NCBI RefSeq assembly: GCF_014641075.1
Contig: NZ_BMHP01000001.1
Span: forward strand, 1,820,171-1,852,170
DNA from: Paenibacillus nasutitermitis
GTDB lineage: Bacteria; Bacillota; Bacilli; Paenibacillales; Paenibacillaceae
Direction of reading: 5' to 3'
Length of the DNA stretch: 32,000 nucleotides
The notes below the pieces were generated by a model. That model ran no database searches and was not told the DNA's origin. It was given only the letters and a program-made list of their open reading frames with translations. Below, piece after piece: positions 933-24,027 of the stretch. Each line of letters starts with the position of its first letter. The first letter of the stretch is position 1. Position numbers and translations under genes: made by a program.

Positions 933-945
933 AGTGGTTTGAGGG

Positions 946-972
946 CCGGGGACTTGTGTCTCCGGTTTTTTT
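946..972 (+). terminator. Rho-independent terminator after the kinase gene
   Basis: CCGGGGAC / GTCTCCGG 8-bp stem (one G-U pair), loop TTGT, followed by T7 (966-972). Confidence 0.75.
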
Positions 973-975
973 ATG

Positions 976-1031
976 TCCTTTTCAGCGTTGTTTAAGCTTC
1001 CTTTCAGCATCTCTAACGGATTTCTAAGAAT
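976..1031 (+). promoter_or_regulatory. Candidate regulated promoter of the ABC operon: direct repeats TCCTTTTCAGC (976-986) and TCCTTTCAGC (999-1008), then a -10-like TAAGAAT (1025-1031)
   Basis: Two near-identical 10-11-nt direct repeats with their TTCAGC cores 22 bp apart (two helical turns). The distal-to-proximal layout ends in TTCAGC-N16/17-TAAGAAT. It lies between the kinase terminator and the next gene. Confidence 0.35.
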
Positions 1032-1049
1032 CTGCTGGCATACTGGGCA

Positions 1050-7117: not shown

Positions 7118-7139
7118 AGAGTATGAGGAGGGCCCCGCA

Positions 7140-8060: not shown

Positions 8061-8545
8061 GCGGACAAATGGAACAGGCAGCGGTGAATCTGGATGAACT
8101 ATATGCGGCACACTCCGCTTATTTGAACAAATATATGTATAAATTGACACGCGATCGGGAGGATGCAGCCGATCTAGTGCAGGATATTTTCCTGAAATTA
8201 TGCCTGCAGGGAAGTCTGCCGGATCATCCGAAAGCATGGCTTTCCCAGACCGGCTACCGGCTGTTCATCGATCAGTGGCGCCGCAAGCAGCGTTTGAGCC
8301 AGCTCCAGCTGGAGAAAGCTTACTGCAATATTGCCGCCCCGGAACAAGCCGCTCTTGATAGGGAATTCGAGAGATATGTAGATCGGCTGCTTTTGCGCCT
8401 CAATCCACGGATGCGTACTGCTTTATATCTGCGAATATACAGGCATTCCAGCTATGAAGAAATTGCCCGGATGCTAGATTGTTCGCAGAATACGGTCAAA
8501 ACCTTCATCCGGCGAGGCAAAGCGCAATTGTCCAAGTGGCTGTGA
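8057..8545 (+). CDS. ECF-type RNA polymerase sigma-70 family factor
   Basis: Region 2 (DREDAADLVQDIFLKL ... FIDQWRRKQR) and region 4 HTH (SYEEIARMLDCSQNTVKTFIRRGKAQL). The GTG start overlaps the stop of ATPase 2 (GTGA at 8057-8060). Confidence 0.85.
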   Translation: MSGQMEQAAVNLDELYAAHSAYLNKYMYKLTRDREDAADLVQDIFLKLCLQGSLPDHPKAWLSQTGYRLFIDQWRRKQRLSQLQLEKAYCNIAAPEQAALDREFERYVDRLLLRLNPRMRTALYLRIYRHSSYEEIARMLDCSQNTVKTFIRRGKAQLSKWL

Positions 8546-8715
8546 GGATGAACGACTGCAAGCTCCGTTACCGTCAGTTTACGTCCCAGAGTGGATGGGC
8601 GTATCAGAGATTCATTTTACCAGTTTGCAGGAGAAATGGAGTTCATAGGAGAATCTACAGACAATCAGTCATTAGACAAAAGGAAACAGAAGTATATAGA
8701 GGAAGGAGTCTCCAA

Positions 8716-9375
8716 GTGAACCGACATATAAGAGGCGTTATTTTAGAGGGGTATTCAAACGCTGGAAAAACGTCAGTTTTGAAAGCATTAAAGCTGCTGC
8801 TTGCAGAGGATGAGTCAGCAGAGCGCAGTATTATTGTTCTGAGCGAACATTACTCCCAAGTGTTAAACAATGTTCACGGTAATTTCCAACAGTTAGATCG
8901 CGATGAGCATCTTGTCTTATTACAGGAGCGTGTCGGGATGCTGCGTAAATTAAATGAATGGGCCAATTATTTGGGGCCGGATGCGTCGAGGGGATCAAGA
9001 GGAATATTTTTTATATTGGAAAGATTTCATTTAAATCATAGAGTTGCATTTCCCACTGCATCTTCAAATGATATAAAATCACTCGAAAATGAATTGGTCA
9101 AACTGGGAGCTCAGTGTGTATTATTAACGGTGTCGCCGGAAATTGTTGAGCAGCGAATGCAAAGCCGATCATCTCAGGAATGGACTAACATAACGCGAGA
9201 AGAAATTACGAAAGCAGCAGATGAGTTTATACATACGCAATCAGAATTGTATAAACAGTCTCTTCAATCTGACGTCCCTACTATAGAAATAAATACGGAT
9301 GCTAAAGACTGGGTTTCCTACGCAAACAAAATAATGGCGGTATTAAACGAAACAGAGAAATTCTCAAACTTATGA
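8716..9375 (+). CDS. P-loop NTPase, nucleoside/nucleotide-kinase-like, function unknown
   Basis: Strong RBS GGAAGGAG 7 nt upstream of GTG 8716. Walker A in VILEGYSNAGKTS. The listed ORF start 8479 adds an Arg-rich, non-protein-like 79-aa extension that overlaps the sigma gene. Confidence 0.6.
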   Translation: MNRHIRGVILEGYSNAGKTSVLKALKLLLAEDESAERSIIVLSEHYSQVLNNVHGNFQQLDRDEHLVLLQERVGMLRKLNEWANYLGPDASRGSRGIFFILERFHLNHRVAFPTASSNDIKSLENELVKLGAQCVLLTVSPEIVEQRMQSRSSQEWTNITREEITKAADEFIHTQSELYKQSLQSDVPTIEINTDAKDWVSYANKIMAVLNETEKFSNL

Positions 9376-9392
9376 AAGTGAAATTCATAACC

Positions 9393-9430
9393 AGAACGTG
9401 GGGATCATTGGCCCGCGTTCTTTGCTTTTG
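9393..9430 (+). terminator. Probable rho-independent terminator
   Basis: AGAACGTGGG / CCCGCGTTCT stem (one G-U pair), 9-nt loop, T-rich tail TTGCTTTTGG. Confidence 0.5.
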
Positions 9431-9540
9431 GCAGCAGAGTCAGTAAGCAGCGAAGAAGAATGAATTTCCAAAAAAGTGATCGATTTTACGTGGAATAGAT
9501 TGTATATTCTAATAAGATCAACAAATGATCAGCGACAGGA

Positions 9541-10170
9541 GTGTTAGCCATATATGTCCCCAGCGCTTACCAAATGAAGGATAGAGACACCATTTTGGAC
9601 TTTATCGAAGAGAATAGCTTTGGCACACTTGTATCGAAAACAAACAGATTAACCGCAACACATCTTCCTTTTCTGCTGCAGCGTGAGGGGGGTGAGATCT
9701 ATCTCTACAGCCATATGGCAAAAGCAAACCCGCAATGGAACGAGTTGAACGGGGAGGTGCTCGTGATCTTCTCCGGGCCTCAAAGCTATATCTCTCCTTC
9801 CTGGTATGCGGAAAAAGAAGTGCCGACGTGGAATTATACCGCAGTCCATCTCTATGGCGAATTTCATCTGATAAACGAGAGAGAAGGGCTTCTTGACATC
9901 CTCACCCGGACTGTCGACCGTTATGAAAGCAGCTTTGCTGTTCCCTGGAGTTTAAATGAGGTAAGTGAAGAATATGTCAATCAGCTTGCCAGACATATTG
10001 TTGGCTTCCGGATTGATATCACGCATTACGAGGCTGCATGGAAGCTTCACCAGGATTATTCGGTCCACACTCAAAAGGGCGTCATTAAGGCACTCGAGAA
10101 CCGCCATGATGAAAACTCCCGTAAAATAGCGGGCTTGATGAAACGACACAATAACATATCGGACAATTAA
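9541..10170 (+). CDS. paiB: PaiB-family FMN-binding negative transcriptional regulator
   Basis: N-terminus IYVPSAYQMKDRDTILDFIEENSFGTLVS and the overall length are typical of PaiB. The start codon is unclear because GTG 9541 overlaps the only SD-like AGGAG (9537-9541). Confidence 0.7.
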   Translation: MLAIYVPSAYQMKDRDTILDFIEENSFGTLVSKTNRLTATHLPFLLQREGGEIYLYSHMAKANPQWNELNGEVLVIFSGPQSYISPSWYAEKEVPTWNYTAVHLYGEFHLINEREGLLDILTRTVDRYESSFAVPWSLNEVSEEYVNQLARHIVGFRIDITHYEAAWKLHQDYSVHTQKGVIKALENRHDENSRKIAGLMKRHNNISDN

Positions 10171-10279: not shown

Positions 10280-11860
10280 TTGAACAGGAGTGCTCCCCCT
10301 ATGCTTTCTAAAAATCGCCTCGGCGCTGGACCAAAAGTTTATTTCAGACCCGAAATCAAAAACTGTCCGCATTGCGAGAAAAAATTAGTGCGTTCGCACA
10401 ACGCATGGAACAAAAAAATCTCTACCTTGACCGGCGTCATTCACGCATGGAGCATGGCTTATACATGTCCCAACGAAAGCTGCTCATACGCCAGCATTAC
10501 CTATAAATCAGCAGAAGCAGAAGCGCTAAGCATGAAGCATTCTTCGTACGGCTATGACGTCCTCTGTCTCGTTGGCGAGTTGCGCTTCAAGCAACATCGC
10601 ACCTGCAAAGAAATTGCAGACGCGTTGAATGAACGTGGCATCGTAACCAGCGAACGATACGCGCAAACGCTGTACGAACGTTATCAAGCGCTGTTGGCCG
10701 CCAGCCTCGACGATCATGTCAGACAAAGTTTGGCAGAGACCACGGCGCAAAACGGCGGAATCATCCTTTCCATGGACGGCGTCCAACCCGAGAAGGGGAA
10801 CGAGATATTCTATGTCATTCGTGAGGTATTCAGCGGCACGATTCTGGCGGCTCGGAACATGAAGAGCGGAGCGGCAGCCGAACTGCGTACGCTGATCGAT
10901 CCCATTATCGATATGGGGTATCCCATCGTAGGCATTGTAAGCGACGGACAGGTTTCCATCCGGCAGGCATTCGAATCACTCTTGCCTGACGTGCCGTATC
11001 AGTACTGCCAGTACCATTACTTGAAAGATATTGCCAAGCCTGTCGTGGATGCGGATCGAAAGCTCAAAATGGAACTGAAAAAGAGCATGCGCGGCCTGCG
11101 GGATGTGGAACGAAAAATCGAGCAGGCTGAGAAAAAGGCAACGGAAGCTTCACAAGCAAACGCAGATGCGAATCCTGACTCTTCAAGCGCCGCAGCGGAA
11201 ACAACCGTGCTCGCAGAAACGCAGGTGGCGAAGGGATATGTGGCCGCTGTCCGCGCGTTGCTTCTGGAAGATGGTGAACCACCGCTTGATCTACCGGGCA
11301 TGATGGTCTACGAACGTGCCCAAGCCATACAGGCGTCGCTTGCGCGATGCTTGACTAAAAAAAGAGCCTCATCTGCTCCAGAGTCTGGTCAGAATTTTCA
11401 GTAAACTTGGCGATCAGGCCTCGCGCTATGAAGCCGTAGCCCGCTGGACGAAGCCTGTTGCCCATATTGCGGCAGCCTTGGAACCAGACGAAGACAAGAC
11501 CAGCGAAACCGTTGAATGGGAAATGACCCACGTATTGTACTGGCTCAAACAGACCTATACGGAAGAGAACGATTCCGTTATGGTCAACAATGTGACCAAC
11601 TATTCCCGCGGGTTCTGGAAAGGGCTGTTTACCTGTTACGATCATTATTTCATCCCGCGAACGAATAACGATCTGGAACAATTTTTTCGCCGAACTGTCA
11701 TCGCCGAATCACGGGCCTTCGTAACTGGAACAGCTACATCGTTCGAAACGGAGAAATGGTTGTACTTGTGGACGATGCGCTTCGACAAAAACACGTCATC
11801 GCCCGTTTGCGAACTGTGAGCTATGAAACGTGTACGCAGCGTAAGTCTCACTGTTCTTAG
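10280..11860 (+). pseudogene. DDE transposase (family not assignable by eye) with an N-terminal Zn-finger, disrupted by two frameshifts
   Basis: CPHCEKK...CPNESC zinc motif, D-containing blocks LSMDGVQPEKG and IVSDGQVSIRQA, conserved PRTNNDLEQFFRR...RRITG. Protein-like sequence runs in frame 2 (10280-11363), frame 0 (11352-11693) and frame 2 again (11690-11860). The switches fall at the A7 run 11357-11363 and near 11688-11696. Confidence 0.75.
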
Positions 11861-12565
11861 CCAAACTAACAAGCAGACGAGCTACTTTACTGCATAATTT
11901 CATGATGGACTTCATCTTCTTTAGCTTCTTTACCTCAACATTGTAACGGTGCAAAGCCCGGATTTCTGGATTCCTCATGACCATACACATCATCATGAGA
12001 TAGAGAAAATGACGCAGACGCGGCCAACCTCGTTTGCTTAGCACCATCTTTCCTCGCCACTTCTCCGAACTGGCCTCAGCTAGGTTCAAACCGGCATGTC
12101 GCAGCAACGCATTTCCGTGCGAATAGCCACTTAGATCACCGGCATCACCGAGTACACCAGCTAGGCTTGTCGCACTGACGCCTCGTATTTCAAGCAGCTT
12201 CTGCGCGTAGGGAATGCGTTCCAGAATGAGATGGAGCTCGCGTTCAATCTGTTCCAATTGGCGCTGGGCTAGGTCGTATTCTTCAAGCAATTGCCCAAGA
12301 TGAAGCTTGTAAGCATGAAGTGCTTTGGTGGTTCCAACACTCGATTTTGCAAGGAGGTGCTGAGTAGATCCTGAATCCAATTTTCGAATAGTGTGAACCC
12401 TTCACGATGGTTACCAAACTCGAGCGGAGTGCCAAGCGCAATGCCACGAAAGCTGACGGCGCGAGCCACATGGACTTCCTGCGCGATGTCAACACCAACG
12501 ACCAGGTGATGAACGGTAATGTTTTCAATCCGTTGATTTTGCTTGTCCTGTGCTTTAAAATTCAT
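11796..12565 (-). pseudogene. IS110-family transposase, frameshifted and internally deleted
   Basis: The N-terminal DEDD-type start (HHLVVGVDIAQEVHVARAV...GFTLFENWIQ, ORF 12269-12565) and the C-terminal Transposase_20-like part (LLEIRGVSATSLAGVLGDAGDLSGY...SKRGWPRLRHFLY, ORF 11796-12380) lie in different frames. The total of ~256 codons compares with ~340-400 for intact family members, and the central catalytic block is absent. Confidence 0.8.
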
Positions 12566-12790
12566 AGTAGAGCGACCTCCTGATAGCCGGGAGCGGTCTC
12601 TTTTTTAATTATTTGCGGGTTACAGGCTATACGATATAAACCGTATAAGAATGAAGAAGCTGCCGGCAAGATCGGCGGCTTCATTACGTTGCGTGCCCAG
12701 AGGCACGCATTCACTAACCGGTGAGGGAGGGGCCAAGCCTCCGCGTAGCTAGGATACTTACGTATAGAGCCTATCATTACTTTTACCTAT
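11796..12790 (-). mobile_element. IS110-family element remnant (borders approximate) abutting the 3' end of the other transposase gene
   Basis: Transposase remnant plus a ~215-nt structured non-coding region 5' of it. The 3' end overlaps the convergent transposase ORF within 11796-11860. Confidence 0.6.
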
Positions 12791-12881
12791 CTTCACCATA
12801 AAGGATCCGTATTGGCCTTTTCTACTAATTCTCATTACTATGAAGGAACACCGGTGATTTATTTTTGATAGGAGATTTTTT

Positions 12882-13535
12882 ATGAAATGGCTTCAAAGAT
12901 CTGGATCAGGGGTATTATTCGTTGTTGTACTCGCCCTATTTTCTACCTGGCTCGGTTCCTTAATGCCTGTAATAGGCGGTCCAGTATTTGGTATACTCCT
13001 GGACGTTATGATCAACAATACGGTAGGCAAACCGAAGTGTTTTCAAGCGGGCATCCAGTTTAGTTCAAAAAATGTGCTGCATTGGTCCATTATTGCGCTT
13101 GGCTGCGGGCTAAGCTTGACGCAGGTATGGCAGACGGGCTCGGAATCTTTTTCACTGAAGATGGTCAGTTTAGCTGCTTCTTTCCTCGCGGCTTACGGGT
13201 TCGGTCGGCTGCTGAACATCCCGGATAGACTAAAAACATTGATCGGAGCTGGAACAGGCATCTGCGGCGGTTCCGCTATTGCTGCCGTATCGCCGATTAT
13301 CGAGGCCGAAGAAATCGAGATTGCCTACGCGATTTCGACTATATTTTTGTTCAACATTGCGGCGGTTCTTCTGTTCCCCTCGCTCGGCCATTGGTTTAAC
13401 ATGTCCGACGAAGCCTTTGGTTTATTAGCCGGAACTGCGATCAACGATACCTCGTCAGTAGTGGCCGCTGGTTACATTTATAGCAATGACGCCGGAAATT
13501 ACGCTACCATTGTCAAAGATAGCCAATACAGATGA
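12882..13535 (+). pseudogene. YeiH/UPF0324-family (putative sulfate exporter family) membrane protein, 3'-truncated
   Basis: Family-typical blocks LIGAGTGICGGSAIAAVSPII and LAGTAINDTSSVVAAG. The family is ~330-350 aa. Here the family-like sequence stops at ~aa 210 (...NYATIVK) and the frame ends 7 codons later. Confidence 0.65.
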
Positions 13536-13923
13536 AATTGCTCAAGCCGTCCATGCCAACGAGCTCGGAATCGGACTGGTGGAAGGAAATGTCGAATGTC
13601 GGGATATTCTGGTCACTCCCCCGTTTATGGAGGATGAAATGGTTTTGGTCGCACCTCGCAATCATCCGTTAAGCTTGCAAAGGATAATTGAACCGGGAGA
13701 GCTGCAAGACCAGGTTTGGGTATTCAGAGAAAATGGCTTCGTTACACGGGCATTTAGCGATCAATTTATCGGGGAGCTGGGCCTTTGCATCAAACGCTCC
13801 TTTGGCTCTACGTTTCATCGAGGTATCGTGAAATTGTTTATCTTGCATGAGAAACACATCCAAAGCCCGCCACCCGCTGGTTATCATACCAGTGAGTGGC
13901 GGTTTTTTCATTTGCGTGAATGA
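13486..13923 (+). pseudogene. Internal fragment of a LysR-family regulator (substrate-binding domain only)
   Basis: ELGIGLVEG...FMEDEMVLVAPRNHPL...VWVFRENGFVTRAF matches the LysR co-inducer domain. There is no N-terminal HTH. LysR-like sequence is lost after ...KRSFGST (~13815). A terminator hairpin lies inside the nominal ORF. Confidence 0.6.
13867..13908 (+). terminator. Rho-independent terminator-like hairpin
   Basis: 14-nt arms CCGCCACCCGCTGG / CCAGTGAGTGGCGG (2 mismatches), loop TTATCATA, then T6. Confidence 0.55.
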
Positions 13924-14008
13924 TAACTAACTGTAGACACGGGCCAAATCAATTTTATATTATTCGTATATCCGTATATAATGGACGAAAACTCGTAGGA
14001 GGCCAATT

Positions 14009-14191
14009 ATGGATGCAATGTCAGTGAAAGAGGCATCAGAAAAATGGGGTATCTCAGAGCGTCGCGTTCAAAAGCTCTGTGAAGAAGACCGTATCCCCGG
14101 CGTGGTACGCTTTGGGCACTCTTGGGCAATGCCCAAAGATGCGGAAAAGCCACCTGATGGACGATTGAAATTTGAACGAAAAAAATCTTAA
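14009..14191 (+). CDS. Small helix-turn-helix DNA-binding protein (MerR/excisionase-like HTH)
   Basis: RBS GTAGGAGG. SVKEASEKWGISERRVQKLCEEDRIPG is a typical HTH_17/MerR-like motif. TATAAT at 13977-13982 lies upstream. Confidence 0.7.
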   Translation: MDAMSVKEASEKWGISERRVQKLCEEDRIPGVVRFGHSWAMPKDAEKPPDGRLKFERKKS

Positions 14192-14193
14192 AT

Positions 14194-14226
14194 CTACAGT
14201 CAAACTACAGATTACTATGCTATCTT
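14194..14226 (+). promoter_or_regulatory. Candidate vanR-vanS promoter with two phased CTACAG repeats (putative VanR boxes)
   Basis: CTACAG at 14194 and 14205 (11-bp phasing), 7 nt, then TGC-TATCTT (extended -10-like, 14218-14226). The geometry is the same as at 16876-16930. Confidence 0.6.
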
Positions 14227-14244
14227 TTTTCAGGAGGGATATTT

Positions 14245-14910
14245 ATGGGCGTACGAATTCTGCTTGTCGAGGATGACGAGCATATATGTAATACCGTCAA
14301 AACCTTTTTAAGAGAAGCCGGATATAAAGTAGACGCCTGCCTAGATGGTAGCGAAGCGCATAAAAACTTTTATGATAATGTTTACCAACTTGTCATTCTC
14401 GACATCATGCTGCCTGGTATAAGCGGTCACGAGCTTTTACGGGAGTTCCGCAAGATTAACAATACCCCTATTCTGATGATGACCGCGCTTTCCGATGATG
14501 AGAATCAAATCAAGGCGTTTGACGCGGAAGCGGATGATTATGTGACAAAGCCGTTCAAGATTCAGCTTCTGTTGAAACGTGTGGAAGCCCTGCTCCGGCG
14601 AAGCGGCGCGTTGGCAAAGGAAGTCTGCTGCGGCAAGCTGACGCTTTTGCCGGAAGATTTCAAGGTGGTTTATGAAAACAGGGAGTTGCCCTTGACAATC
14701 AAAGAATTTGAAATCCTTATGCTATTGGTTCAGAACAGGGGTAGGATGGTATCTCATGAAATTATCTTATCCCGCATATGGGGCTATGACTTTGATGGTG
14801 ATGGCAGCACAGTGCATACCCACATCAAAAACCTGCGAGCGAAATTACCGGATAATATTATCAAGACTGTTCGTGGCATAGGTTACCGAGTGGAGGAAGA
14901 AATGACATGA
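14245..14910 (+). CDS. vanR: OmpR-family response regulator VanR (VanR-B-like)
   Basis: Receiver domain (LVILDIMLPG, ADDYVTKPF) and winged helix (TVHTHIKNLRAKL...RGIGYR). Long stretches match my recollection of VanR-B (ILLVEDD.HICNTV, TPILMMTALSDDENQI.AFDAEADDYVTKPFK, LLKRVEALLRRSGALAKE). Confidence 0.9.
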   Translation: MGVRILLVEDDEHICNTVKTFLREAGYKVDACLDGSEAHKNFYDNVYQLVILDIMLPGISGHELLREFRKINNTPILMMTALSDDENQIKAFDAEADDYVTKPFKIQLLLKRVEALLRRSGALAKEVCCGKLTLLPEDFKVVYENRELPLTIKEFEILMLLVQNRGRMVSHEIILSRIWGYDFDGDGSTVHTHIKNLRAKLPDNIIKTVRGIGYRVEEEMT

Positions 14911-16247
14911 AAAATAGAGGAATCTTTTTCAAGGTATTCATTTATACAATAATTTTCTCGATACTGTTGGTTGGCGTGACGGCAGCCCTGCTATCTACAC
15001 AGATTATCTCCTATTTCTCACGTGTTCGATTGCAGGAAATCACCAGCACCTATCAGAGTATCGTTATCCAGTCGAAAGGTGAAAATGACATCACAGAAGT
15101 GGCGAGGCAGTTCTACGAAAAGAACCAGTCCTTGCAATTCTACATCAAGGACATGGAAGGACACATTGTTTACGCAACACCCGAAGCTGAAACATCCGGC
15201 ATCGAAAGCGGCGCACCACCTTACAGTAGCACAATAATGTTGCGTATGGATAATGATTATTTACTTTATGTGCTAAAAAGTGACCTTATCGCGATGGACT
15301 ACGATAAGTGGATTGTGCAAGCCCTCGTAGTGTTGTCCGCCATGCTTGCTGTCTGCGTCATAAGCACGTTTGTCTTTGCAAGGCAGATAACAAGACCAAT
15401 CAAAACTCTGGCGGATGCTACGAATAAGATGGCTAATCTCGAAGCAGTCCCACCACTGCCGGAGCGCAGTGATGAACTTGGTGCATTAGCCCGAGATGTT
15501 CATTCTATGTACAGCAAGTTGAAAGAAACCATATCCAAATTAGAGGACGAAATTCTGCGGGAGCGTGAATTGGAGGAAACACAGCGATATTTCTTCTCGG
15601 CGGCTTCCCATGAACTCAAAACGCCTATCGCAGCCACAAGCGTCTTGTTGGAGGGAATGCTTGAAAATGTAGGCGATTACAAAGACCACCCCAAATACCT
15701 GCGCGAATGCGTGAAGATGATGGACGCGCAGAGCAAAATTATTTCTGAAATACTGGAAATTGTTAATCTGAACAAAGGGAAAATCGTACCCGTTCCTGAA
15801 AGGCTGGACATAAGACATATAGTTGCTGACATACTTCCTGACTTTCAGATATTGGCTGAGGCAAACGGTCAGCGTATTGTTACGGACATTCCTGACGGAG
15901 AGGCCTGCCTTGCCGACCATAAAATGCTCCAAAAGGCGCTTTCCAACATCATTTTGAATGCGGTGCAGAACACGCCCAATGGCGGTGAGATTCGGATATG
16001 GAGTGAACCTGTGGCAAATCAATACCGCCTTTGCATACTAAACACAGGGGCAAGGATTGACGATGCCGTGTTGCCGAAGCTGTTTGACCCATTCTACCGT
16101 GTAGATAAGGTGCGGAGCCGGAAAGACAGGCGAAGCGGCTTGGGACTGACTATTGTGAGGAAAATGCTGGAGTCAATAAATGTTGATTTCGCTTTCGAAA
16201 ACGCCCCTGACGGCGTTCTGTTTTGGATGAACTTGCCGAAGGCGTAA
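14907..16247 (+). CDS. vanS: Sensor histidine kinase VanS
   Basis: ATGA overlap with vanR. Two TM segments flank a ~110-aa extracytoplasmic loop. H-box SHELKTPI, N-box ILNAVQNTP, G-box RSGLGLTIV. At 446 aa it is the same size class as VanS-B. Confidence 0.85.
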   Translation: MKNRGIFFKVFIYTIIFSILLVGVTAALLSTQIISYFSRVRLQEITSTYQSIVIQSKGENDITEVARQFYEKNQSLQFYIKDMEGHIVYATPEAETSGIESGAPPYSSTIMLRMDNDYLLYVLKSDLIAMDYDKWIVQALVVLSAMLAVCVISTFVFARQITRPIKTLADATNKMANLEAVPPLPERSDELGALARDVHSMYSKLKETISKLEDEILRERELEETQRYFFSAASHELKTPIAATSVLLEGMLENVGDYKDHPKYLRECVKMMDAQSKIISEILEIVNLNKGKIVPVPERLDIRHIVADILPDFQILAEANGQRIVTDIPDGEACLADHKMLQKALSNIILNAVQNTPNGGEIRIWSEPVANQYRLCILNTGARIDDAVLPKLFDPFYRVDKVRSRKDRRSGLGLTIVRKMLESINVDFAFENAPDGVLFWMNLPKA

Positions 16248-16272
16248 AAGCGACTATACGAGGAGATAAATA

Positions 16273-16806
16273 ATGAAACCAGAAAAGCGAAACACACTTA
16301 CAATCGCGTTGTTCGTAGTATATATACTGCTGCAAGTAGGAATTATCCTCTTTAAACTGCCGTTTTATTCCGAAAAATTATCAGACGGAATACGAGTAAT
16401 TAACCTGATTCCATTTCAGGAGTCTTTCGATGAAAACGGAGTTTTAATCTTGCGTGAAATTATTGATAATATACTTCTTTTTATACCGCTCGGCATCTAT
16501 ATCTGTATGCTAAAAAACGAATGGCCTTTCATGAAAAAAGTCCTTCCAATTTTCAGCTTAACTTTAGTGTTTGAAGTCATACAATTCATTTTTGCGATTG
16601 GAAGAAGTGATATTACTGATGTACTCGGCAACACGCTTGGAGGGGTAATCGGCATTGGCATTTATGCTTTATTGTTCAGAATTTTCAAAAACAGGACTTT
16701 TAGGATTATAAATATACTTGCCTTGGTAGTAACAATTTGCGTAGTAGCGCGTTTCGCCCATCTGTTTTACCTCAGCCATTTTGTCATGAAGCGTCTGCAT
16801 CCCTGA
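16273..16806 (+). CDS. vanZ: VanZ-family membrane protein
   Basis: 177 aa with 4-5 TM segments. VanZ-like blocks NLIPF, NILLFIPLGIY, EVIQFIF..GRSDITDVLGNTLGGVIG. It starts 25 nt after the vanS stop with RBS GAGGAG. Confidence 0.8.
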   Translation: MKPEKRNTLTIALFVVYILLQVGIILFKLPFYSEKLSDGIRVINLIPFQESFDENGVLILREIIDNILLFIPLGIYICMLKNEWPFMKKVLPIFSLTLVFEVIQFIFAIGRSDITDVLGNTLGGVIGIGIYALLFRIFKNRTFRIINILALVVTICVVARFAHLFYLSHFVMKRLHP

Positions 16807-16832
16807 TGTTAGCGACCATACCTTTTCACTTT

Positions 16833-16864
16833 GACCGACAGGGTTATTCCTGCCGGTCTTTTTT
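16833..16864 (+). terminator. Rho-independent terminator after the vanZ-like gene
   Basis: GACCGACAGG / CCTGCCGGTC 10-bp stem (1 mismatch), loop GTTATT, T6. Confidence 0.7.
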
Positions 16865-16875
16865 ATTTCTCTCCG

Positions 16876-16930
16876 CTACAGACAAACTACAGGTTGGCTA
16901 CAGGGAAAATACAGATTGCTTTGCAATAAT
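16876..16930 (+). promoter_or_regulatory. Candidate resistance-operon promoter with four 11-bp-phased (C)TACAG repeats (putative VanR boxes)
   Basis: CTACAG at 16876, 16887 and 16898, and aTACAG at 16909. Then 7 nt and TGC-AATAAT (16922-16930). The distal pair CTACAGaCAAACTACAG differs by 1 nt from CTACAGtCAAACTACAG at 14194-14210. Confidence 0.65.
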
Positions 16931-16987
16931 ATCAGCATGACAACACGCAAATACCTGTTTTATGCCATATGAAGGAGGACTACTATA

Positions 16988-18025
16988 GTGAAAATGAAAA
17001 AGCTAATCGCACTCGTTTTAGCGCTTTTTCTCGTGCTTTTCCTCGCTGCTTGCAACAGCAGCACGACCACGCCGCCCTCGTCGGCAGCAGCCATTTCGCC
17101 GACGAACACAGAACTGCCTGCTAATTCGCTACAAGGAGATGCAGGTTCCACCCACACAGAGGACATTGAAAACATTTCGGTAGATATTATGGCAACAAAC
17201 GCCTATGTACTAAATGTTGATACCAATTCTGTTCTCTATCAGAAAAACAGCGATAAGCATATAGCTCCGGCAAGCACAGCCAAAATGCTTACAGCTTTAA
17301 CAGCCTTAGATTATTGCTCCCTTGATGATACGATTACAGTTGGCTCGGAGATAGACCTGATTGCCTCTGATTCTTCCAGAGCATGGCTTAGTAATGGGGA
17401 TACGATGACGGTCAGACAACTTTTAGTCGCTTTGTTGCTTCCCTCCGGCAATGACGCTGCGTACACACTTGCTGTTAATGCGGGGAAAAGGATAGCCGGT
17501 GAAGATGGCCTTGGAGCGCAGCAGGCTGTTAAAGTGTTTGTCGATGCGATGAATCAAAAAGCAAAAAAAGTTGGAGCAACTTCTTCCAATTTTATAGCCC
17601 CTGACGGCTACGATGCGGACGGGCAGTACACAACCGCTTTTGACCTTGCGCAGATAGCAAAAGTGTGTTTAGGCAATAATGCTCTGTCTGAAATTATGGG
17701 CAGTTACAAGATATATGATACATGGATGAATGGGCGGGAAGTTACTTATCGCAATACTAACGAGTTGATAAACCCTGATAGCCAATACTATTATTCCAAT
17801 GCTATCGGACTTAAAACCGGCACTACCGGGGATGCTGGTTCCTGCCTTGTTTCAGCGGCTGACATAAATGGACAAACATATATTTGTGTTGTCATGGGTT
17901 CCTCTGCGGGTATCAGATTTTCGGACTGCCTAACTGTTTTTAGTGCAATAGACCCGACAATATCCCTGCCCCAAGAAAACAATGCTACCCCTTCTGCTGC
18001 TCCCAGCGGACTGAGGAGGCGTTGA
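16988..18025 (+). CDS. Serine-type D-Ala-D-Ala carboxypeptidase (peptidase S11, low-MW PBP) lipoprotein in the vanY position
   Basis: RBS GAAGGAGG 9 nt before GTG 16988. Lipobox LFLAAC. Active-site triad of motifs SxxK (ASTAKML), SxN (PSGND) and KTG (LKTGTT). Confidence 0.85.
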   Translation: MKMKKLIALVLALFLVLFLAACNSSTTTPPSSAAAISPTNTELPANSLQGDAGSTHTEDIENISVDIMATNAYVLNVDTNSVLYQKNSDKHIAPASTAKMLTALTALDYCSLDDTITVGSEIDLIASDSSRAWLSNGDTMTVRQLLVALLLPSGNDAAYTLAVNAGKRIAGEDGLGAQQAVKVFVDAMNQKAKKVGATSSNFIAPDGYDADGQYTTAFDLAQIAKVCLGNNALSEIMGSYKIYDTWMNGREVTYRNTNELINPDSQYYYSNAIGLKTGTTGDAGSCLVSAADINGQTYICVVMGSSAGIRFSDCLTVFSAIDPTISLPQENNATPSAAPSGLRRR

Positions 18026-18063
18026 ATGGTGACTTTTAATGAAATGGAAAGACTGGTGTAACT

Positions 18064-18891
18064 ATGAGAAGAAAAAGACTAACGCAATTATTTCCATTCC
18101 TGCTACCGGTCAGGGTAATGCAACGGAAGATGTGTTTTTATACCGGTATGCGGCTTGATGGCCTTCGCTATGCGGGAACCATTGACGAGTCGCAGCTTCC
18201 TTACAAGATCTTTGAAGCGGGCTGCGCATTATACAATAGCAATACCGGCTTCGATATGATGTATCAGGAAAATAAAGTGTTTAACCTGAAGCTGGCGGCA
18301 AAGACACTGAGCGGTCTTTTGATAAGACCGGGTGAAACCTTTTCCTTTTGGCGGCTAGTTCGCCATGCGGATAAGCATATTCCCTATAAAGACGGTCTTA
18401 CAGTGGTAAATGGAAAACTCACCACCATGTCTGGTGGCGGTATGTGTCAAATGAGCAATCTGCTGTTTTGGATGTTCCTGCACACGCCGCTGATGGTCAC
18501 CGAGCGGAGCGGCCACAATGTCAAGGAGTTTCCCGAACCAAACAGTGACGAGATCAAAGGGGTGGACGCAACAATCTCCGAGGGATGGATTGACTTAAAG
18601 GCGCGAAACGATACCGATTGCACCTATCAAATTTCAGTGGCGTTCGATAATGAAAACATCATAGGAACTGTGTTCGTAGACAAACGACCCCAAGTGCTGT
18701 ACAAAGTCACAAACGGCAGCACCGAGTATTTCCGCGAAAGCGGCGAGATTTATGAATACGTCAAGGTTGAGAGAGCGGAAATTAACGCGGACACCAGTGA
18801 AATAACAGGGCAAAAGCTGCTCTACACCAACAAATGTAAAATCTGCTACCCTCTGCTGGATAACGCAGAAATCAAGGAGGCGAAAAATTGA
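18064..18891 (+). CDS. vanW: VanW-family protein
   Basis: At 275 aa it is the same length as VanW of the vanB operon. Long recalled matches (KRLTQ.FPFLLP, FDM.YQENKVFNLKLAAKTL.GLLIRP.ETFSFWRLVRHAD, GKLTTMSGGGMCQMSNLLFW, EFPEPNSDEIKGVDATISEGWIDLK). Confidence 0.85.
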   Translation: MRRKRLTQLFPFLLPVRVMQRKMCFYTGMRLDGLRYAGTIDESQLPYKIFEAGCALYNSNTGFDMMYQENKVFNLKLAAKTLSGLLIRPGETFSFWRLVRHADKHIPYKDGLTVVNGKLTTMSGGGMCQMSNLLFWMFLHTPLMVTERSGHNVKEFPEPNSDEIKGVDATISEGWIDLKARNDTDCTYQISVAFDNENIIGTVFVDKRPQVLYKVTNGSTEYFRESGEIYEYVKVERAEINADTSEITGQKLLYTNKCKICYPLLDNAEIKEAKN

Positions 18892-19859
18892 TGAACAACA
18901 TTGGAATTACCGTTTATGGTTGCGAGCAAGATGAGGCGGATGTGTTCCGCAGACTGTCACCTCGCTTTGGCGTCATGCCTACTATTATTAGCGACGCCGT
19001 ATCAGAAACCAATGCTATATCAGCCCCCTGCAATCAATGTATCAGTGTGAGCCACAAATCTGTGGTTTCCGCCTCTATTCTTCTTGCGCTGAAGAGAGCC
19101 GGCGTGAAATATATCTCTACCCGAAGCATCGGCTGCAATCATATCGATACAACTGCTGCTAAGAGAATGGTTATCGCTATCGGCAATGTGACGTATTCGC
19201 CGAATAGCGTTGCTGATTTTACCCTAATGCTGATGCTTATGGCGATACGCAACGCGAAGTCCATTGTACGCTCTGTGGAAAAACATGATTTCAGGCTGGA
19301 TAGCGTCCGCGGCAAGGTACTGCGCGACATGACAGTCGGCGTGCTGGGAACTGGTCAAATAGGCCAAGCGGTTATTGAGCGGCTGCGGGCATTTGGATGT
19401 CGTGTGCTGGCTTATGATCGCGGCCAGAAAATAACGGCAGACTATGTTCCGCTTGACGAGTTGCTGCGAAACAGCGATATTGTTACGCTTCATGTGCCGC
19501 TGGGTGCGGATACGCATCATATCATCGGTCACGAACAAATAAGGGGAATGAAGCAAGGCGCGTTTATTATCAATACAGGACGTGGAGCGCTTATAGATAC
19601 CGATGCGCTTATTAAAGCATTGGAAAACGGAAAACTGGGCGGGGCCGCATTGGATGTATTGGAGGGAGAGGAAGGGCTATTCTACTTTGATTGCACACAA
19701 AAATCAATTGATAATCCATTTTTACTGAAACTTCAAAGGATGCCGAACGTGATCATCACGCCGCATACGGCTTATTATACCGAACAGGCGTTGAGTGATA
19801 CCGTTGAAAATACAATTAAAAACTGTTTGGACTTTGAAAGGAGCCTAGCGCATGGATAA
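18891..19859 (+). CDS. vanH: D-lactate (D-2-hydroxyacid) dehydrogenase VanH
   Basis: RBS AAGGAGG, with ATG 18891 overlapping the vanW stop. NAD fold GVLGTGQIGQAV, catalytic region TGRGALID...PHTAYYT. Strong recalled similarity to VanH-B. Confidence 0.9.
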   Translation: MNNIGITVYGCEQDEADVFRRLSPRFGVMPTIISDAVSETNAISAPCNQCISVSHKSVVSASILLALKRAGVKYISTRSIGCNHIDTTAAKRMVIAIGNVTYSPNSVADFTLMLMLMAIRNAKSIVRSVEKHDFRLDSVRGKVLRDMTVGVLGTGQIGQAVIERLRAFGCRVLAYDRGQKITADYVPLDELLRNSDIVTLHVPLGADTHHIIGHEQIRGMKQGAFIINTGRGALIDTDALIKALENGKLGGAALDVLEGEEGLFYFDCTQKSIDNPFLLKLQRMPNVIITPHTAYYTEQALSDTVENTIKNCLDFERSLAHG

Positions 19860-20883
19860 AGTAAAAGTTGCAATCCTGTTTGGCGGTTGTTCGGAGGAGC
19901 ATGATGTGTCGGTCAAATCCGCAATGGAGATCGCCGCTAACCTGGACACCGAAAAATACGAGCCGTTATACATCGGCATTACGAAATTCGGTGTTTGGAA
20001 AATGTGCGAAAAACCTGGCCCGGAATGGGAAAACGGCAATGGCTGTTCAGCCGTGCTCTCTCCGGATAAAAAAACGCACGGATTGCTTGTTCTAAAAAAC
20101 AATTCATATGAAATCCACCATGTTGATGTCGCATTTCCGGTTTTGCACGGCAAGTCGGGTGAAGATGGAGCGATACAAGGTCTGTTTGAATTGTCCGGTA
20201 TCCCCTATGTGGGCTGCGATATTCAAAGCTCCGCGATTTGTATGGACAAGTCGCTGGCCTACATCATGGCGAAAAACGCCGGCATCGCGACTCCCGAATT
20301 TTGGGTTATCCATGAAGACGACAGGGCAGCAACAGATGCGTTTACCTATCCTGTTTTTGTTAAGCCGGCGCGTTCAGGTTCATCCTTTGGCGTGACAAAA
20401 GTGGGTGGTGCGGACGAATTGGAGGCCGCGATTGAAGCGGCCAGTCAATATGATAGCAAAATCTTAATCGAGCAGGCTGTTGTCGGCTGTGAGGTCGGTT
20501 GTGCCGTGATGGGCAACCGTTCCGAGTTGATTGCCGGCGAGGTGGACCAAATTAGGCTAACGCACGGTCTCTTTCGCATTCATCAGGAGGCCGAGCCGGA
20601 AAAAGGCTCCGAAAACGCGGTTATAACCGTTCCCGCACACCTTTCGGCAGAGGAGCGAGGACGGATACGGGAGTTTGCAAAACAAATCTATAAGGCGCTC
20701 GGCTGTAGAGGTCTTTCCCGCATTGATATTTTTTTACAAGATAACGGCCGCATCGTGCTTAACGAAGTCAATACGTTGCCCGGGTTCACGTCATACAGCC
20801 GTTATCCCCGGATGATGGCAGCTGCAGGCATAACGCTTCCCGAACTGATTGACCGCCTGATCGTACTCGCGTTAAAGGGGTGA
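19852..20883 (+). CDS. D-alanine--D-lactate ligase (VanA/VanB/VanF clade)
   Basis: 8-nt overlap with vanH. Blocks KVAILFGGCSEEHDVSVKSA, GEDGAIQGLFELSGIPYVGCDIQSSAICMDKS, FRIHQE.EPEKGSENA, LNEVNTLPGFTSYSRYPRMMAAAGI.LPELIDRLIVLALKG. The His in FRIHQE corresponds to VanA His244, associated with D-Lac specificity. Confidence 0.92.
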   Translation: MDKVKVAILFGGCSEEHDVSVKSAMEIAANLDTEKYEPLYIGITKFGVWKMCEKPGPEWENGNGCSAVLSPDKKTHGLLVLKNNSYEIHHVDVAFPVLHGKSGEDGAIQGLFELSGIPYVGCDIQSSAICMDKSLAYIMAKNAGIATPEFWVIHEDDRAATDAFTYPVFVKPARSGSSFGVTKVGGADELEAAIEAASQYDSKILIEQAVVGCEVGCAVMGNRSELIAGEVDQIRLTHGLFRIHQEAEPEKGSENAVITVPAHLSAEERGRIREFAKQIYKALGCRGLSRIDIFLQDNGRIVLNEVNTLPGFTSYSRYPRMMAAAGITLPELIDRLIVLALKG

Positions 20884-20888
20884 TAAGC

Positions 20889-21497
20889 ATGGAAAAGGGA
20901 TTTGTATTTGTAGATGAAATATTGCACGGTGTTCGCTGGGACGCCAAATATGCGACATGGGACAATTTCACGGGAAAACCAGTAGACGGATATGAGGTCA
21001 ATCGCATAGTGGGAACACTTGCCTTAGCCCTTGCGCTGTTGGAGGCGCAGAAGCAAGCGGAGGCTCTTGGGTACGGTTTGCTGTTATTGGACGGGTATCG
21101 GCCCAAACGTGCGGTAGATTGCTTCCTGCATTGGTCCGAACAACCGGAAGACAACCTCACAAAAGAAAGATACTATCCGAATATCGAGCGAACCGAGATG
21201 TTTGCAAAGGGATATATAGCGTCACAATCAAGTCATAGTCGCGGAAGTGCTATTGATCTTACGCTTTACCACTTAGATACGGGTGAGCTTGTTTCCATGG
21301 GAGGAAGCTTCGATTTTATGGATGAGCGTTCACACCATGGGGCAAAAGGGATTGCAAGCATGGAAGCGCAAAATCGCAGACTTTTGCGTTCCATCATGGA
21401 AAACAGTGGGTTCGAACCATATAGCTTCGAATGGTGGCACTATGTATTAAGAGACGAACCATACCCCAATAGCTATTTTGATTTCCCTGTTTTATAG
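20889..21497 (+). CDS. vanX: D-Ala-D-Ala dipeptidase VanX
   Basis: RBS AAGGGG. HGVRWDAKYATWDNFTGKPVDGYEVNRIVGT, Zn-site region SSHSRGSAIDLT and EWWHY. Confidence 0.92.
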   Translation: MEKGFVFVDEILHGVRWDAKYATWDNFTGKPVDGYEVNRIVGTLALALALLEAQKQAEALGYGLLLLDGYRPKRAVDCFLHWSEQPEDNLTKERYYPNIERTEMFAKGYIASQSSHSRGSAIDLTLYHLDTGELVSMGGSFDFMDERSHHGAKGIASMEAQNRRLLRSIMENSGFEPYSFEWWHYVLRDEPYPNSYFDFPVL

Positions 21498-21621
21498 CGA
21501 ATACTCCTGATTTTCTAAATATGCTTGTTCATGTTCAGCACAATGCCGCCCGCCAAATTCGTACCAATGGCTGTCAGAGAGTAGAATTATCGATATTAGC
21601 TGCGGGACGGAGAGATAGGCC

Positions 21622-22311
21622 ATGAACTTGCAAAAGAAAAATTACGAAATCATTACGGACGAGCTCCGGCGCATCATCGAAGCGGGACTGATCAAGCCGA
21701 ACGAGAAGCTCGCTACGATTGATCAATTGGCGGCGCAGTACCGCGTCGGACGGTCGACGGTGCGCGAGGCGCTCAGCCATCTGAAGGCGCTCGGTCTCGT
21801 CGAATCGCGGCAAGGCGGCGGCACCTACGTCAAGAAGCCAGGGCTCGAGCCGCAGGCGGTGCTGGAATCGCTGCAGACGTCGAACGCCGAACTGTCGCAG
21901 CTGCTTCAGGTGCGCAAGATCCTTGAGGTCGGCGCGGCGGAGCTTGCAGCCAAACACCGCATCGCCGAAGACGTCGAAGAGCTCGGCAAAATCATCGGAC
22001 AAATGCGGGACGCCGTCGGCAACGAGGAGATCAGCCAGATCTACGATACGAACTTTCACCTCGCTATCGCTAGGGCATCCGGCAACGCGATTCTGGAAAC
22101 GATCATGACGCACATTTCTGCGGCGATGTTCCGCACCGTTAAGGATAGCCGCAGACTGTGGCTCTATAGCGGGAAGGATGCGGCCGGCAAGCTGTTCGAG
22201 GAGCACAAGAAGCTGTTCGAAGCGATCCGCGACGGAGATTCGAAGACGGCGGTCTCGACGATGGCGAAGCATATCGCTCAAGTCGAGAACGCTCTGCAGT
22301 CGGTTAAATGA
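21622..22311 (+). CDS. GntR-family (FadR/FCD subfamily) transcriptional regulator
   Basis: N-terminal wHTH (LATIDQLAAQYRVGRSTVREALSHLKALGLVESRQGGGTYV) and an all-helical FCD-type C-terminal domain. Confidence 0.85.
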   Translation: MNLQKKNYEIITDELRRIIEAGLIKPNEKLATIDQLAAQYRVGRSTVREALSHLKALGLVESRQGGGTYVKKPGLEPQAVLESLQTSNAELSQLLQVRKILEVGAAELAAKHRIAEDVEELGKIIGQMRDAVGNEEISQIYDTNFHLAIARASGNAILETIMTHISAAMFRTVKDSRRLWLYSGKDAAGKLFEEHKKLFEAIRDGDSKTAVSTMAKHIAQVENALQSVK

Positions 22312-22523
22312 ATGGATAAACGCCTACTTGCTGCAGACGCGTCTGCTCTTAGCAAAAATCTCGATGAGAAACAAAAAAATCAAGTTTTAAGACAAATTAT
22401 TATGGAAGGTCGCCATTACGGCGTACTAATTCCGAATTGCAATTTCAGTTGAAGGCAACTAAAAATGGAAAACGGCAAAACTGTCGAAAGGCAGTGACGC
22501 AATGCCTCGGATCTTCTCACTGT

Positions 22524-22739
22524 TCAAGTGATGACCGCCGGGTTATCCGAGGCAGAATGTTCCATTCCCGACAGCACTATTTCCACGATCCGCTCCGGTA
22601 GCGATTTATCAAGCGATTCTCCCCAAAAAACGGCACGCATATAAAGAACCCCGATGAGAGATTCCAATATCAACCGATGGTACGTGGAAAAAACCTGAAA
22701 ATGATCCTTGCTCTCATTGTCTCGTTTGTTAGTCCTTAT
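22524..22739 (-). pseudogene. Possible C-terminal remnant of a TetR-family regulator (no start codon, no HTH)
   Basis: Hand translation of the minus strand gives ...HFQVFSTYHRLILESLIGVLYMRAVFWGESLDKSLPERIVEIVLSGMEHSASDNPAVIT*, helical and TetR C-domain-like. It is bounded upstream by an in-frame TAA. Confidence 0.3.
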
Positions 22740-22986: not shown

Positions 22987-24027
22987 ATGGAAATGGTTGA
23001 AAACAAAAAGCTTCGTGGAGCTGTAATCGGTTACGGTGGCGCTTTCAATATGGGCAAACATCACGGGATTCAAATGATGAATGCGGGAATTGATTTTGTC
23101 GCGGCGTGCGATATGGATGCCGATAGAATGGAACAAGCCAAAGCGGATTTTCCGGGTATCCGGACTTATCTCAGCGTTGATGATTTGCTTCGTGAGCCCG
23201 ATATCGACCTTGTTACAGTCATTACTCCTCATAATACACATGCTCCGCTCGCCGAGCAGATCATTAACAGCGGCAAACACTGCATCTTGGAGAAACCGAT
23301 GTGCATAAAGGCGCAGGATGCTGATCGTCTTGTCCATCTGGCGCAGCAAAAGGGCGTGATGCTCTCCGTATTCCACAACCGCCGGTGGGATGGCTGGTAT
23401 CTGACGGTTAAGGACTTGATCGACAAAGATATCCTCGGTGATATTTTTCAAGTGGAAATGTATATGGGCGGATACGACAAACCCGGACCATGGTGGCGTT
23501 CGATCAAAGAAGTATCCGGCGGCGTCTTCTACGACTGGGGCGCGCATTATATCGATTACCTGCTTGGCATCGTTCCTGGCAAAATCAAGTCGGTCCGCGG
23601 ATATGTTCATAACCGGGTCTGGCATGAGATAACCAATGAAGACCATATCGACAGCCATATCGAGTTTGAAAGCGGCGCGGTCGCCCATATCGAAATCTCA
23701 ACCATTGCCTATGCGGGAAAAGCAGCCATGCGCATCCTCGGAACAAAAGGCGCAGTCGTAGACACGAGCTTGTGGGATGGCAAAATAACTTTATTCACTG
23801 ACATCAATGGCGTTAAAGTGGAGTCGGACATCAATTGCATGAAAGACAGCCATGATGCCTATTATCAAAATATCGCAGCTCATTTGTACAGAGGCGAGGA
23901 ACTGATTGTCAAGCCGGAGGAAGCGCGGCGGATTATCGCAATTCTAGAAACAACGGAGCATTCCGCAGCTGCAGGCAGGGAATTGGAGCTTCCTTATGAG
24001 AACATAGATGTCCTGAAGGCCAATTAA
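22987..24027 (+). CDS. Gfo/Idh/MocA-family NAD(P)-dependent oxidoreductase
   Basis: N-terminal Rossmann region (LRGAVIGYGGAFNMGKHH), EKP motif (CILEKPMC), and a C-terminal alpha/beta domain. Confidence 0.85.
   Translation: MEMVENKKLRGAVIGYGGAFNMGKHHGIQMMNAGIDFVAACDMDADRMEQAKADFPGIRTYLSVDDLLREPDIDLVTVITPHNTHAPLAEQIINSGKHCILEKPMCIKAQDADRLVHLAQQKGVMLSVFHNRRWDGWYLTVKDLIDKDILGDIFQVEMYMGGYDKPGPWWRSIKEVSGGVFYDWGAHYIDYLLGIVPGKIKSVRGYVHNRVWHEITNEDHIDSHIEFESGAVAHIEISTIAYAGKAAMRILGTKGAVVDTSLWDGKITLFTDINGVKVESDINCMKDSHDAYYQNIAAHLYRGEELIVKPEEARRIIAILETTEHSAAAGRELELPYENIDVLKAN

Follow-up and report, generated by a model that had tools for sequence, protein, structure and literature searches.

What kind of glycopeptide-resistance operon is carried by the soil and termite bacterium Paenibacillus nasutitermitis, and from what parts has it been put together? 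The question is raised by a van gene cluster on the + strand at positions 14009-21497 of a 32,000-nucleotide stretch of contig NZ_BMHP01000001.1. This whole stretch is the DNA that we analyzed and is termed the window, and coordinates refer to it unless another contig is named. The order of elements is a helix-turn-helix (HTH) gene, vanR, vanS, vanZ, a terminator, an S11 carboxypeptidase gene, vanW, vanH, a gene for a D-alanyl-D-lactate (D-Ala-D-Lac) ligase, and vanX. We think it very probable that the cluster forms an island of glycopeptide resistance in the chromosome (about 13803-22398), one that has been exchanged horizontally and is a modular mosaic wired like the vanB operon. It has nine open reading frames, all intact and with the expected catalytic motifs present:

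14009-14191, + strand: HTH_17 (excisionase/MerR-like) DNA-binding protein of 60 amino acids (Pfam HTH_17, E = 4e-6)
14245-14910, + strand: vanR, OmpR-family response regulator of VanR-B type, with Asp53 in LVILDIMLPG (Pfam Response_reg and Trans_reg_C)
14907-16247, + strand: vanS, sensor histidine kinase of VanS-B type (Pfam HAMP, HisKA and HATPase_c)
16273-16806, + strand: vanZ-family membrane protein of 177 amino acids with five hydrophobic segments (Pfam VanZ, E = 5e-23)
16988-18025, + strand: S11 serine DD-carboxypeptidase (VanY-D-like penicillin-binding protein), a predicted lipoprotein (Pfam Peptidase_S11, E = 3e-41)
18064-18891, + strand: vanW accessory protein (NCBIfam vanW-gen, 444 bits; cut-off 365)
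18888-19859, + strand: vanH, D-lactate dehydrogenase, pyruvate to D-lactate (NCBIfam vanH_gen, 591; cut-off 540)
19852-20883, + strand: D-alanine--(R)-lactate ligase, of the VanA clade but not VanA (NCBIfam D_ala_D_lac equivalog, 654 bits; cut-off 550)
20880-21497, + strand: vanX, zinc D-Ala-D-Ala dipeptidase (NCBIfam dipept_VanX, 369; cut-off 320)

The genes fall into two units. The first is vanR-vanS-vanZ, running up to the intrinsic terminator with vanZ as the final gene of the regulatory transcript, and the second comprises the S11 gene, vanW, vanH, the ligase gene and vanX. Reading frames overlap inside each unit, by 4 nucleotides at vanS/vanR, vanH/vanW and vanX/ligase and by 8 nucleotides at ligase/vanH, and the overlapping frames of the second unit are predicted to be translationally coupled.

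The general features of a D-Ala-D-Lac cluster are all found here, namely a ligase with the active-site histidine, adjoining VanH and VanX, and a linked VanR and VanS with complete domains. The ligase carries FRIHQE at residues 241-246, as VanA does, with His244 in the omega loop, and its top match in the PDB is VanA itself (1E4E) over the full length. The zinc and catalytic motifs SHSRGSAID and EWWH are present in VanX. In VanS a hydropathy scan places transmembrane segments at residues 4-37 and 133-161, around an external loop of about 95 amino acids, and these are followed by the HAMP, HisKA (His233) and HATPase domains. A structure search with VanW gave no solved homolog.

From homology, the VanS-B-type kinase would sense vancomycin-class drugs by means of its large extracellular loop and phosphorylate VanR. 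Phosphorylated VanR would then bind repeats in front of both units and activate the two promoters. VanH would supply D-lactate, the ligase would make D-Ala-D-Lac and VanX would destroy D-Ala-D-Ala, so that D-Ala-D-Lac replaced D-Ala-D-Ala. Outside the membrane the S11 lipoprotein would trim the leftover pentapeptide precursors that end in D-Ala, and VanZ may add teicoplanin tolerance. The function predicted is thus inducible glycopeptide resistance, with vancomycin probably the inducer.

An earlier note on this DNA had read the same gene order, had taken the core enzymes to be intact, and had described a blend of a VanB-type vanW, an upstream vanZ and a penicillin-binding-protein-type carboxypeptidase that fitted none of the classical vanA, vanB, vanD or vanF orders. 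On all of this it was right. The nine frames lie where it placed them and belong to the Pfam and NCBIfam families expected, the ligase and VanX motifs are there, the carboxypeptidase is of the S11, VanY-D-like kind, and none of the type-specific NCBIfam models (VanA, VanB, VanD, VanF, VanM, VanR-B, VanS-B, VanW-B and VanY-D) reached its cut-off. The environmental Paenibacillus host that it suspected is likewise correct, as the ligase and a flanking 929-amino-acid ATP-binding cassette (ABC) permease are 100% identical to P. nasutitermitis proteins on a 2.36-Mb contig. That Paenibacillus is a reservoir of van genes is a long-established idea.

The note had also implied that the arrangement was new, and had raised the question of whether the order was already a named van type. 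The implied novelty fails because the same strain and locus have been listed by Yushchuk et al. 2022 (Genes 13:1960, PMC9689679, Fig. 3u), who give a 'vanRSZYWHAX' arrangement for P. nasutitermitis CGMCC 1.15178, NZ_BMHP01000001. Their locus tags are IEY46_RS07825 (R), 07830 (S), 07835 (VanZ), 07840 ('VanY M15'), 07845 (VanW) and 07850-07860 (H, A, X). Their supplementary table lists two upstream neighbors, a transposase and a transposase pseudogene, as in the window. Judged by eye rather than by alignment, our ligase is exactly their supplementary ligase, and VanH matches bar one extra N-terminal residue that comes from a TTG start call. The locus in the window is the published one, with the same strain, gene content and order. 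Thus the gene order is real and non-classical, yet already catalogued for P. nasutitermitis; essentially the note's question is answered in the affirmative, although the published entry names an arrangement and gives it no van letter. In the VanW tree of Kardos et al. 2024 (PMC11273654) the proteins of P. mendelii and P. nasutitermitis belong to the stem, and basal vanW carriers have ligases from several clades. What we add to the description of Yushchuk et al. is a correction of the carboxypeptidase family, a gene-by-gene map of the mosaic, the finding of conserved promoter and terminator DNA of the VanB type, and evidence that vanHAX cassettes have been exchanged and the island passed on horizontally.

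Regulatory DNA and the carboxypeptidase

How would such a cluster be controlled? Three elements in the intergenic DNA bear on this:

14194-14210, + strand: putative VanR box of P_R, two CTACAG repeats 11 bp apart (pattern search and conservation)
16833-16858, + strand: intrinsic terminator 3' of vanZ, GACCGACAGG-loop-CCTGCCGGTC and then T6 (folding)
16876-16914, + strand: putative VanR boxes of P_Y, four (C/A)TACAG repeats in 11-bp phase (conservation and position)

The terminator noticed earlier after vanZ is real. A simple terminator scan gave a weak call at this position, and folding revealed a longer and stable hairpin, followed by a run of T, with a minimum free energy of -15.4 kcal/mol and z = -4.7; none of 200 shuffled sequences was equally stable. 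The hairpin is kept in all relatives and, in the vanB operon, it is found after vanS-B.

The P_R repeats occupy the gap between the HTH gene and vanR, 35 bp ahead of the vanR start codon, while those of P_Y lie between the terminator and the start codon of the S11 gene and are followed by a CAATAAT element resembling a -10 sequence. A -10-like element in fact follows each of the two repeat sites, before vanR and before the S11 gene. CTACAG-N5-CTACAG is the strongest direct-repeat family of the region, and a search for the repeat pattern gave three matches in the window where 0.01 would be expected.

The layout is strongly conserved. In P. mendelii, P. thiaminolyticus, P. physcomitrellae and the Logan contigs the terminator, four repeats and CATAAT precede the gene that opens the resistance unit. 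The same series follows vanZ in Bacillus toyonensis and stands before vanY-B in the vanB loci, authentic and clostridial. All of these loci, in Paenibacillus, the Logan contigs, B. toyonensis and vanB, also have the two-repeat site 5' of vanR. The boxes are absent from the vanA-type loci examined. Positions 16830-16934 are 83% identical to the Enterococcus faecium vanB region upstream of vanY-B, compared with 72-74% for the flanking coding DNA. From their position, phase and conservation we infer that the repeats are VanR boxes. As described in parts of the review literature, VanR-B activates both P_RB and P_YB, and the conserved terminator and repeats predict a two-promoter regulation of the VanB style in P. 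nasutitermitis. The HTH_17 gene is a conserved upstream neighbor of vanR, situated upstream of the P_R boxes. Its orthologs are placed likewise in P. mendelii (92% identity), in Logan contig L016 (67%) and in vanB loci, authentic and clostridial (50%).

The first gene behind P_Y encodes the sole carboxypeptidase of the cluster, and is the sole gene between vanZ and vanW. The protein has a signal peptide with the lipobox LAAC22, and the motifs STAK96, SGN153 and KTG276 correspond to SxxK, SxN and KTG. Among solved structures, the Streptomyces K15 DD-transpeptidase (1ES4/1SKF) comes closest to it. The sequence is 61-64% identical to named VanY-D proteins over about 79% of the length, 75% to the protein of P. 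thiaminolyticus and 84% to that of Logan contig L016. No M15-type VanY was found anywhere in the window by tblastn with VanY-A and VanY-B (E > 0.5). VanY-D is reportedly a penicillin-binding protein, and by analogy the S11 enzyme would be penicillin-sensitive.

Yushchuk et al. label the carboxypeptidase 'VanY M15' for both IEY46_RS07840 and IEX46_RS11810, and report a DacC-like VanY-D in just two strains of Bacilli. For P. nasutitermitis the published M15 label appears to be wrong, the enzyme being Peptidase_S11 and VanY-D-like. The same correction apparently applies to P. physcomitrellae BMHF01000007, where the gene between vanZ and vanH (8001-9083 of that locus) belongs to PF00768. To judge from locus-tag order alone, the other four strains listed as 'vanRSZYWHAX' look like R-S-W-H-A-X-...-Y-Z. 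With this correction, VanY-D-type enzymes are no longer as rare in Bacilli as has been stated, and a carboxypeptidase step that is sensitive to penicillin is predicted.

Probable mosaic composition

We have compared each protein with an authentic vanB cluster from an E. faecium plasmid and an authentic vanA cluster on p5753cA. The amino acid identities divide the cluster in two:

vanB type: VanR 80%, VanS 60%, VanW 76%, VanH 71%, ligase 73%, VanX 78%; VanZ not present
vanA type: VanR 35%, VanS 24%, VanZ 38%, VanH 81%, ligase 83%, VanX 79%; VanW not present

At the DNA level the change is abrupt. The vanH start codon (18886-18889) marks the onset of similarity to vanA-type loci, which extends to 21491-21526 with 83-89% identity. 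Through vanH-ligase-vanX the nucleotide identity is 83% to the Tn1546 type and 87-89% to Brevibacillus sp. VP and P. alkalitolerans. The nearest relatives of the ligase beyond P. mendelii (87-88%) are all found in VanA-type R-S-H-A-X loci, often followed by gntR. The R-S-Z block is instead 79% identical in nucleotide sequence to a ligase-less R-S-Z module on the B. toyonensis plasmid p356, and VanZ is 78-81% identical to the VanZ of such modules in p356 and Logan contig L016. On p356 the vanR-vanS-vanZ genes (4021-6864) keep the terminator and P_Y boxes, and then comes an unrelated hypothetical gene; an IS4 transposase is located upstream.

The ligase phylogeny suggested in the earlier note was made as a quick neighbor-joining tree, and it places the ligase in the VanA clade. 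VanH groups likewise, and VanX is less clearly resolved. In the ligase tree P. thiaminolyticus CP114031 and P. physcomitrellae belong to the VanF clade, and in those of VanH and VanX both species stand apart from the VanA clade.

The junction of the mosaic is thus placed at the vanW/vanH boundary. We suggest that a Bacillales front end, HTH-R(B-type)-S(B-type)-Z-S11-W, has been joined to a VanA-clade vanHAX-gntR block that would normally stand behind a VanA-type vanRS in Paenibacillus and Brevibacillus. The order R-S-Z-S11-(W)-H-ligase-X is found in four Paenibacillus species. The synteny search that had been suggested identified P. mendelii CCM 4839 as co-linear, with 96-97% nucleotide identity over 13803-21521, and also the complete genome of P. 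thiaminolyticus CP114031, which has R-S-Z-S11-W-H-ligase-X with 56-83% amino acid identity across the eight proteins. P. physcomitrellae has R-S-Z-S11-H-ligase-X, without W. Behind the front end, the window and P. mendelii have a VanA-clade cassette, P. thiaminolyticus and P. physcomitrellae a VanF-clade one, and clostridia and enterococci that of VanB. Since one front end has both VanA-clade and VanF-clade partners, at least two HAX lineages have been combined with it.

Two Logan contigs, L016 and L017 (DRR272104 and DRR272056), have HTH-vanR-vanS-vanZ-S11 without vanHAX, and their alignment extends about 190 nucleotides into vanW (18064-18251 of the window). We had considered them as an ancestral stand-alone R-S-Z-S11 module, and rejected this as the 5' remnant of vanW still aligns. 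A secondary deletion of W-HAX is suggested as the likelier course.

The cluster is a clear case of vanHAX exchange behind a fixed front end, and supports a modular assembly of clinical van operons in soil Bacillales. It also gives continuity to VanB-type regulatory DNA, from the R-S-Z modules of Bacillus through the Paenibacillus clusters to enterococcal vanB. It is tempting to go further, although we do so tentatively and with some doubt. HTH-VanR(B)-VanS(B)-[VanZ]-terminator-P_Y boxes-[carboxypeptidase]-VanW might be a Bacillales expression platform in which vanHAX cassettes are exchanged. The window would then be a living intermediate documenting an origin of the regulatory half of clinical vanB in soil Bacillales, and the S11 lipoprotein would be ancestral, later swapped for the M15 VanY-B.

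Probable horizontal exchange and alternative explanations

The DNA held in common with P. mendelii covers 13803-21521 and 21565-22398, the latter including gntR, and the flanks on either side are unrelated. The van proteins of the two species are 91-98% identical, compared with 75% for the ortholog of the flanking ABC permease. This points to a recent horizontal exchange of the island. Its last gene is:

21622-22311, + strand: GntR/FCD-family regulator, conserved downstream neighbor of VanA-clade Paenibacillus vanHAX (Pfam GntR and FCD)

A gntR homolog directly follows vanX in three VanA-type Paenibacillus loci (L002, L022 and L023), and lies near vanX in L014 and P. mendelii. The base composition fits a mosaic. 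The G+C content is 37% for vanZ, 45-51% for the other van genes and 59% for gntR (58.6%), where third codon positions have a G+C fraction of 0.77, compared with 0.39-0.56 in the van genes.

A number of gene remnants adjoin the island upstream. An IS110-family transposase pseudogene extends over two overlapping open reading frames (11796-12565, - strand). Next come a YeiH-like PF03601 membrane protein with its C terminus cut off (12882-13535) and part of a LysR substrate domain (13486-13923). Taken as a group, the remnants at 11796-13923 look like an insertion/deletion scar. Further upstream, positions 36-9375 encode a histidine kinase fragment, a solute-binding protein, an extracytoplasmic function (ECF) sigma factor and a MacB-type ABC exporter set (ATPase, HlyD-like adaptor, the 929-amino-acid FtsX permease and a second ATPase), and the G+C content falls to 41% at 8500-10000. 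In P. mendelii the DNA between vanX and gntR (11670-13753 of that locus) contains a MurG-like GT28 glycosyltransferase gene (12083-13150) and a duplicated copy of about 440 nucleotides of the vanX 3' end (13314-13753), both absent from the window. Just beyond the stretch shared with P. mendelii there is a c-di-GMP-I riboswitch (RF01051) at 22464-22550 on the + strand, scoring 59.9 bits (gathering score 35), upstream of a GFO/IDH/MocA oxidoreductase gene at 22987-24027.

Several considerations weigh against a horizontally exchanged resistance island with vanB wiring. The VanR boxes are assigned from conservation and position. VanS is just 60% identical to VanS-B, so that the inducer specificity is uncertain. 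The genomic baseline for horizontal transfer is a single flanking protein, and no convincing terminal inverted or direct repeats, mobility genes or recombinase were found bounding the island. The trees are quick neighbor-joining trees of few taxa, without VanD or VanM references, and those of VanH and VanX have no VanF reference. Lastly, our literature search found no phenotype report, whether of expression, minimum inhibitory concentration or precursors, for the P. nasutitermitis strain.

This last point would also suit a cryptic cluster, intact in sequence, but unexpressed or insufficient for resistance and carried as a neutral passenger. Related loci have decayed, as in the ligase-less Logan contigs with just the 5' remnant of vanW and in Clostridium sp. 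M3/9, where vanZ/vanY is interrupted (PMC9689679), and insertion-sequence and gene remnants adjoin the island. Yet the eight van frames are complete and retain their catalytic motifs, conservation extends to the promoter boxes, terminator and ribosome binding sites, and the near-identical intact copies in a second species argue for purifying selection. We regard a silent passenger as unlikely, though it fares best among the alternatives.

A little less likely again is an ancestral operon, inherited vertically in Paenibacillus, in which the differing similarities of the genes reflect unequal evolutionary rates. Such descent could account for the common gene order in four species, and the recurrence of gntR behind vanX in a number of Paenibacillus loci could point to a chromosomal site of long standing. 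It is difficult to reconcile with the unrelated flanks in P. mendelii and with van proteins so much more similar than the flanking ortholog. The ligase and VanH trees conflict with those of R, Z and S11, the onset of 83-89% nucleotide identity at the vanH start codon has the abruptness of a recombination signature, and the van genes are lower in G+C content than gntR and the upstream flank.

An assembly chimera of vanB-like and vanA-like loci, to which the mosaic similarity pattern and nothing further would point, is for practical purposes refuted by the independent co-linear assembly of P. mendelii CCM 4839, by the same order in the complete P. thiaminolyticus genome, and by the frames that overlap across the vanW/vanH junction. 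Self-resistance of a glycopeptide producer was also considered, and rejected as the window has no biosynthetic genes. The exchanged, modular island remains our preferred explanation of the locus.

Relation to known van types

How does the cluster compare with the van types already known? The classical vanA operon of Tn1546 (vanR-S-H-A-X-Y-Z) and the VanA-like RSHAX(YZ/gntR) loci of Paenibacillus and Brevibacillus share with it vanH-ligase-vanX and, downstream, gntR. In contrast to these, the regulators of the window are of an unrelated type, vanZ is upstream, vanW is present and no M15 vanY was found. The ligase scores 691 bits with the VanA-specific model (cut-off 775) and VanH 649 with the VanH A-group model (cut-off 700), and these scores, the low identities of the VanA regulators and the differing order place the cluster outside the vanA type.

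The vanD operon (vanR_D-S_D-Y_D-H_D-D-X_D) is alike in having an S11 carboxypeptidase of the penicillin-binding-protein type between vanS and vanH. The window differs in possessing vanZ and vanW, regulators of the VanB type, and a ligase that is nearer to VanA. The S11 enzyme has vanY_of_D as its best NCBIfam model, at 408 bits (cut-off 625), and the ligase scores 581 as VanD (cut-off 700), so the cluster is not of the vanD type. Nor is it of the vanF type (Y_F(M15)-Z_F-H_F-F-X_F), for the ligase has a VanF score of 600 (cut-off 750), is 73% identical to the representative of the VanF cluster from P. larvae, and falls in the VanA clade rather than that of VanF.

Closer in organization are P. 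thiaminolyticus CP114031 and P. physcomitrellae, where we find the same promoter and terminator architecture, with VanR 76-83%, the S11 protein 67-75% and VanW 83% identical to those of the window. They differ in their VanF-clade ligase, and in a VanH and VanX that are 71-76% identical in amino acid sequence to ours. The 'vanRSZYWHAX' entry of Yushchuk et al. is the same locus, described without the promoter boxes or the VanB/VanA mosaic and with Y labeled M15.

It is the vanB operon (vanR_B-S_B-Y_B-W-H_B-B-X_B), found in Tn1549-type elements, E. faecium and gut Clostridia, that provides the closest parallel in regulation. Both have a VanR-B/VanS-B-type system, vanW and the HTH gene, and both are organized as two transcription units with a terminator and (C/A)TACAG boxes at both promoters. 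The window differs in the added vanZ after vanS, in S11 rather than the M15 VanY-B, and in a VanH, ligase and VanX of the VanA clade. By the type-specific models it is not vanB, with scores of 417 for vanR-B (cut-off 480) and 600 for HK_VanS_B (cut-off 920), which give the two regulators their best NCBIfam matches, 500 for vanW-B (cut-off 610) and 617 for VanB (cut-off 750). At the level of sequence the putative boxes nonetheless occupy equivalent positions at the two promoters in the window and in authentic vanB.

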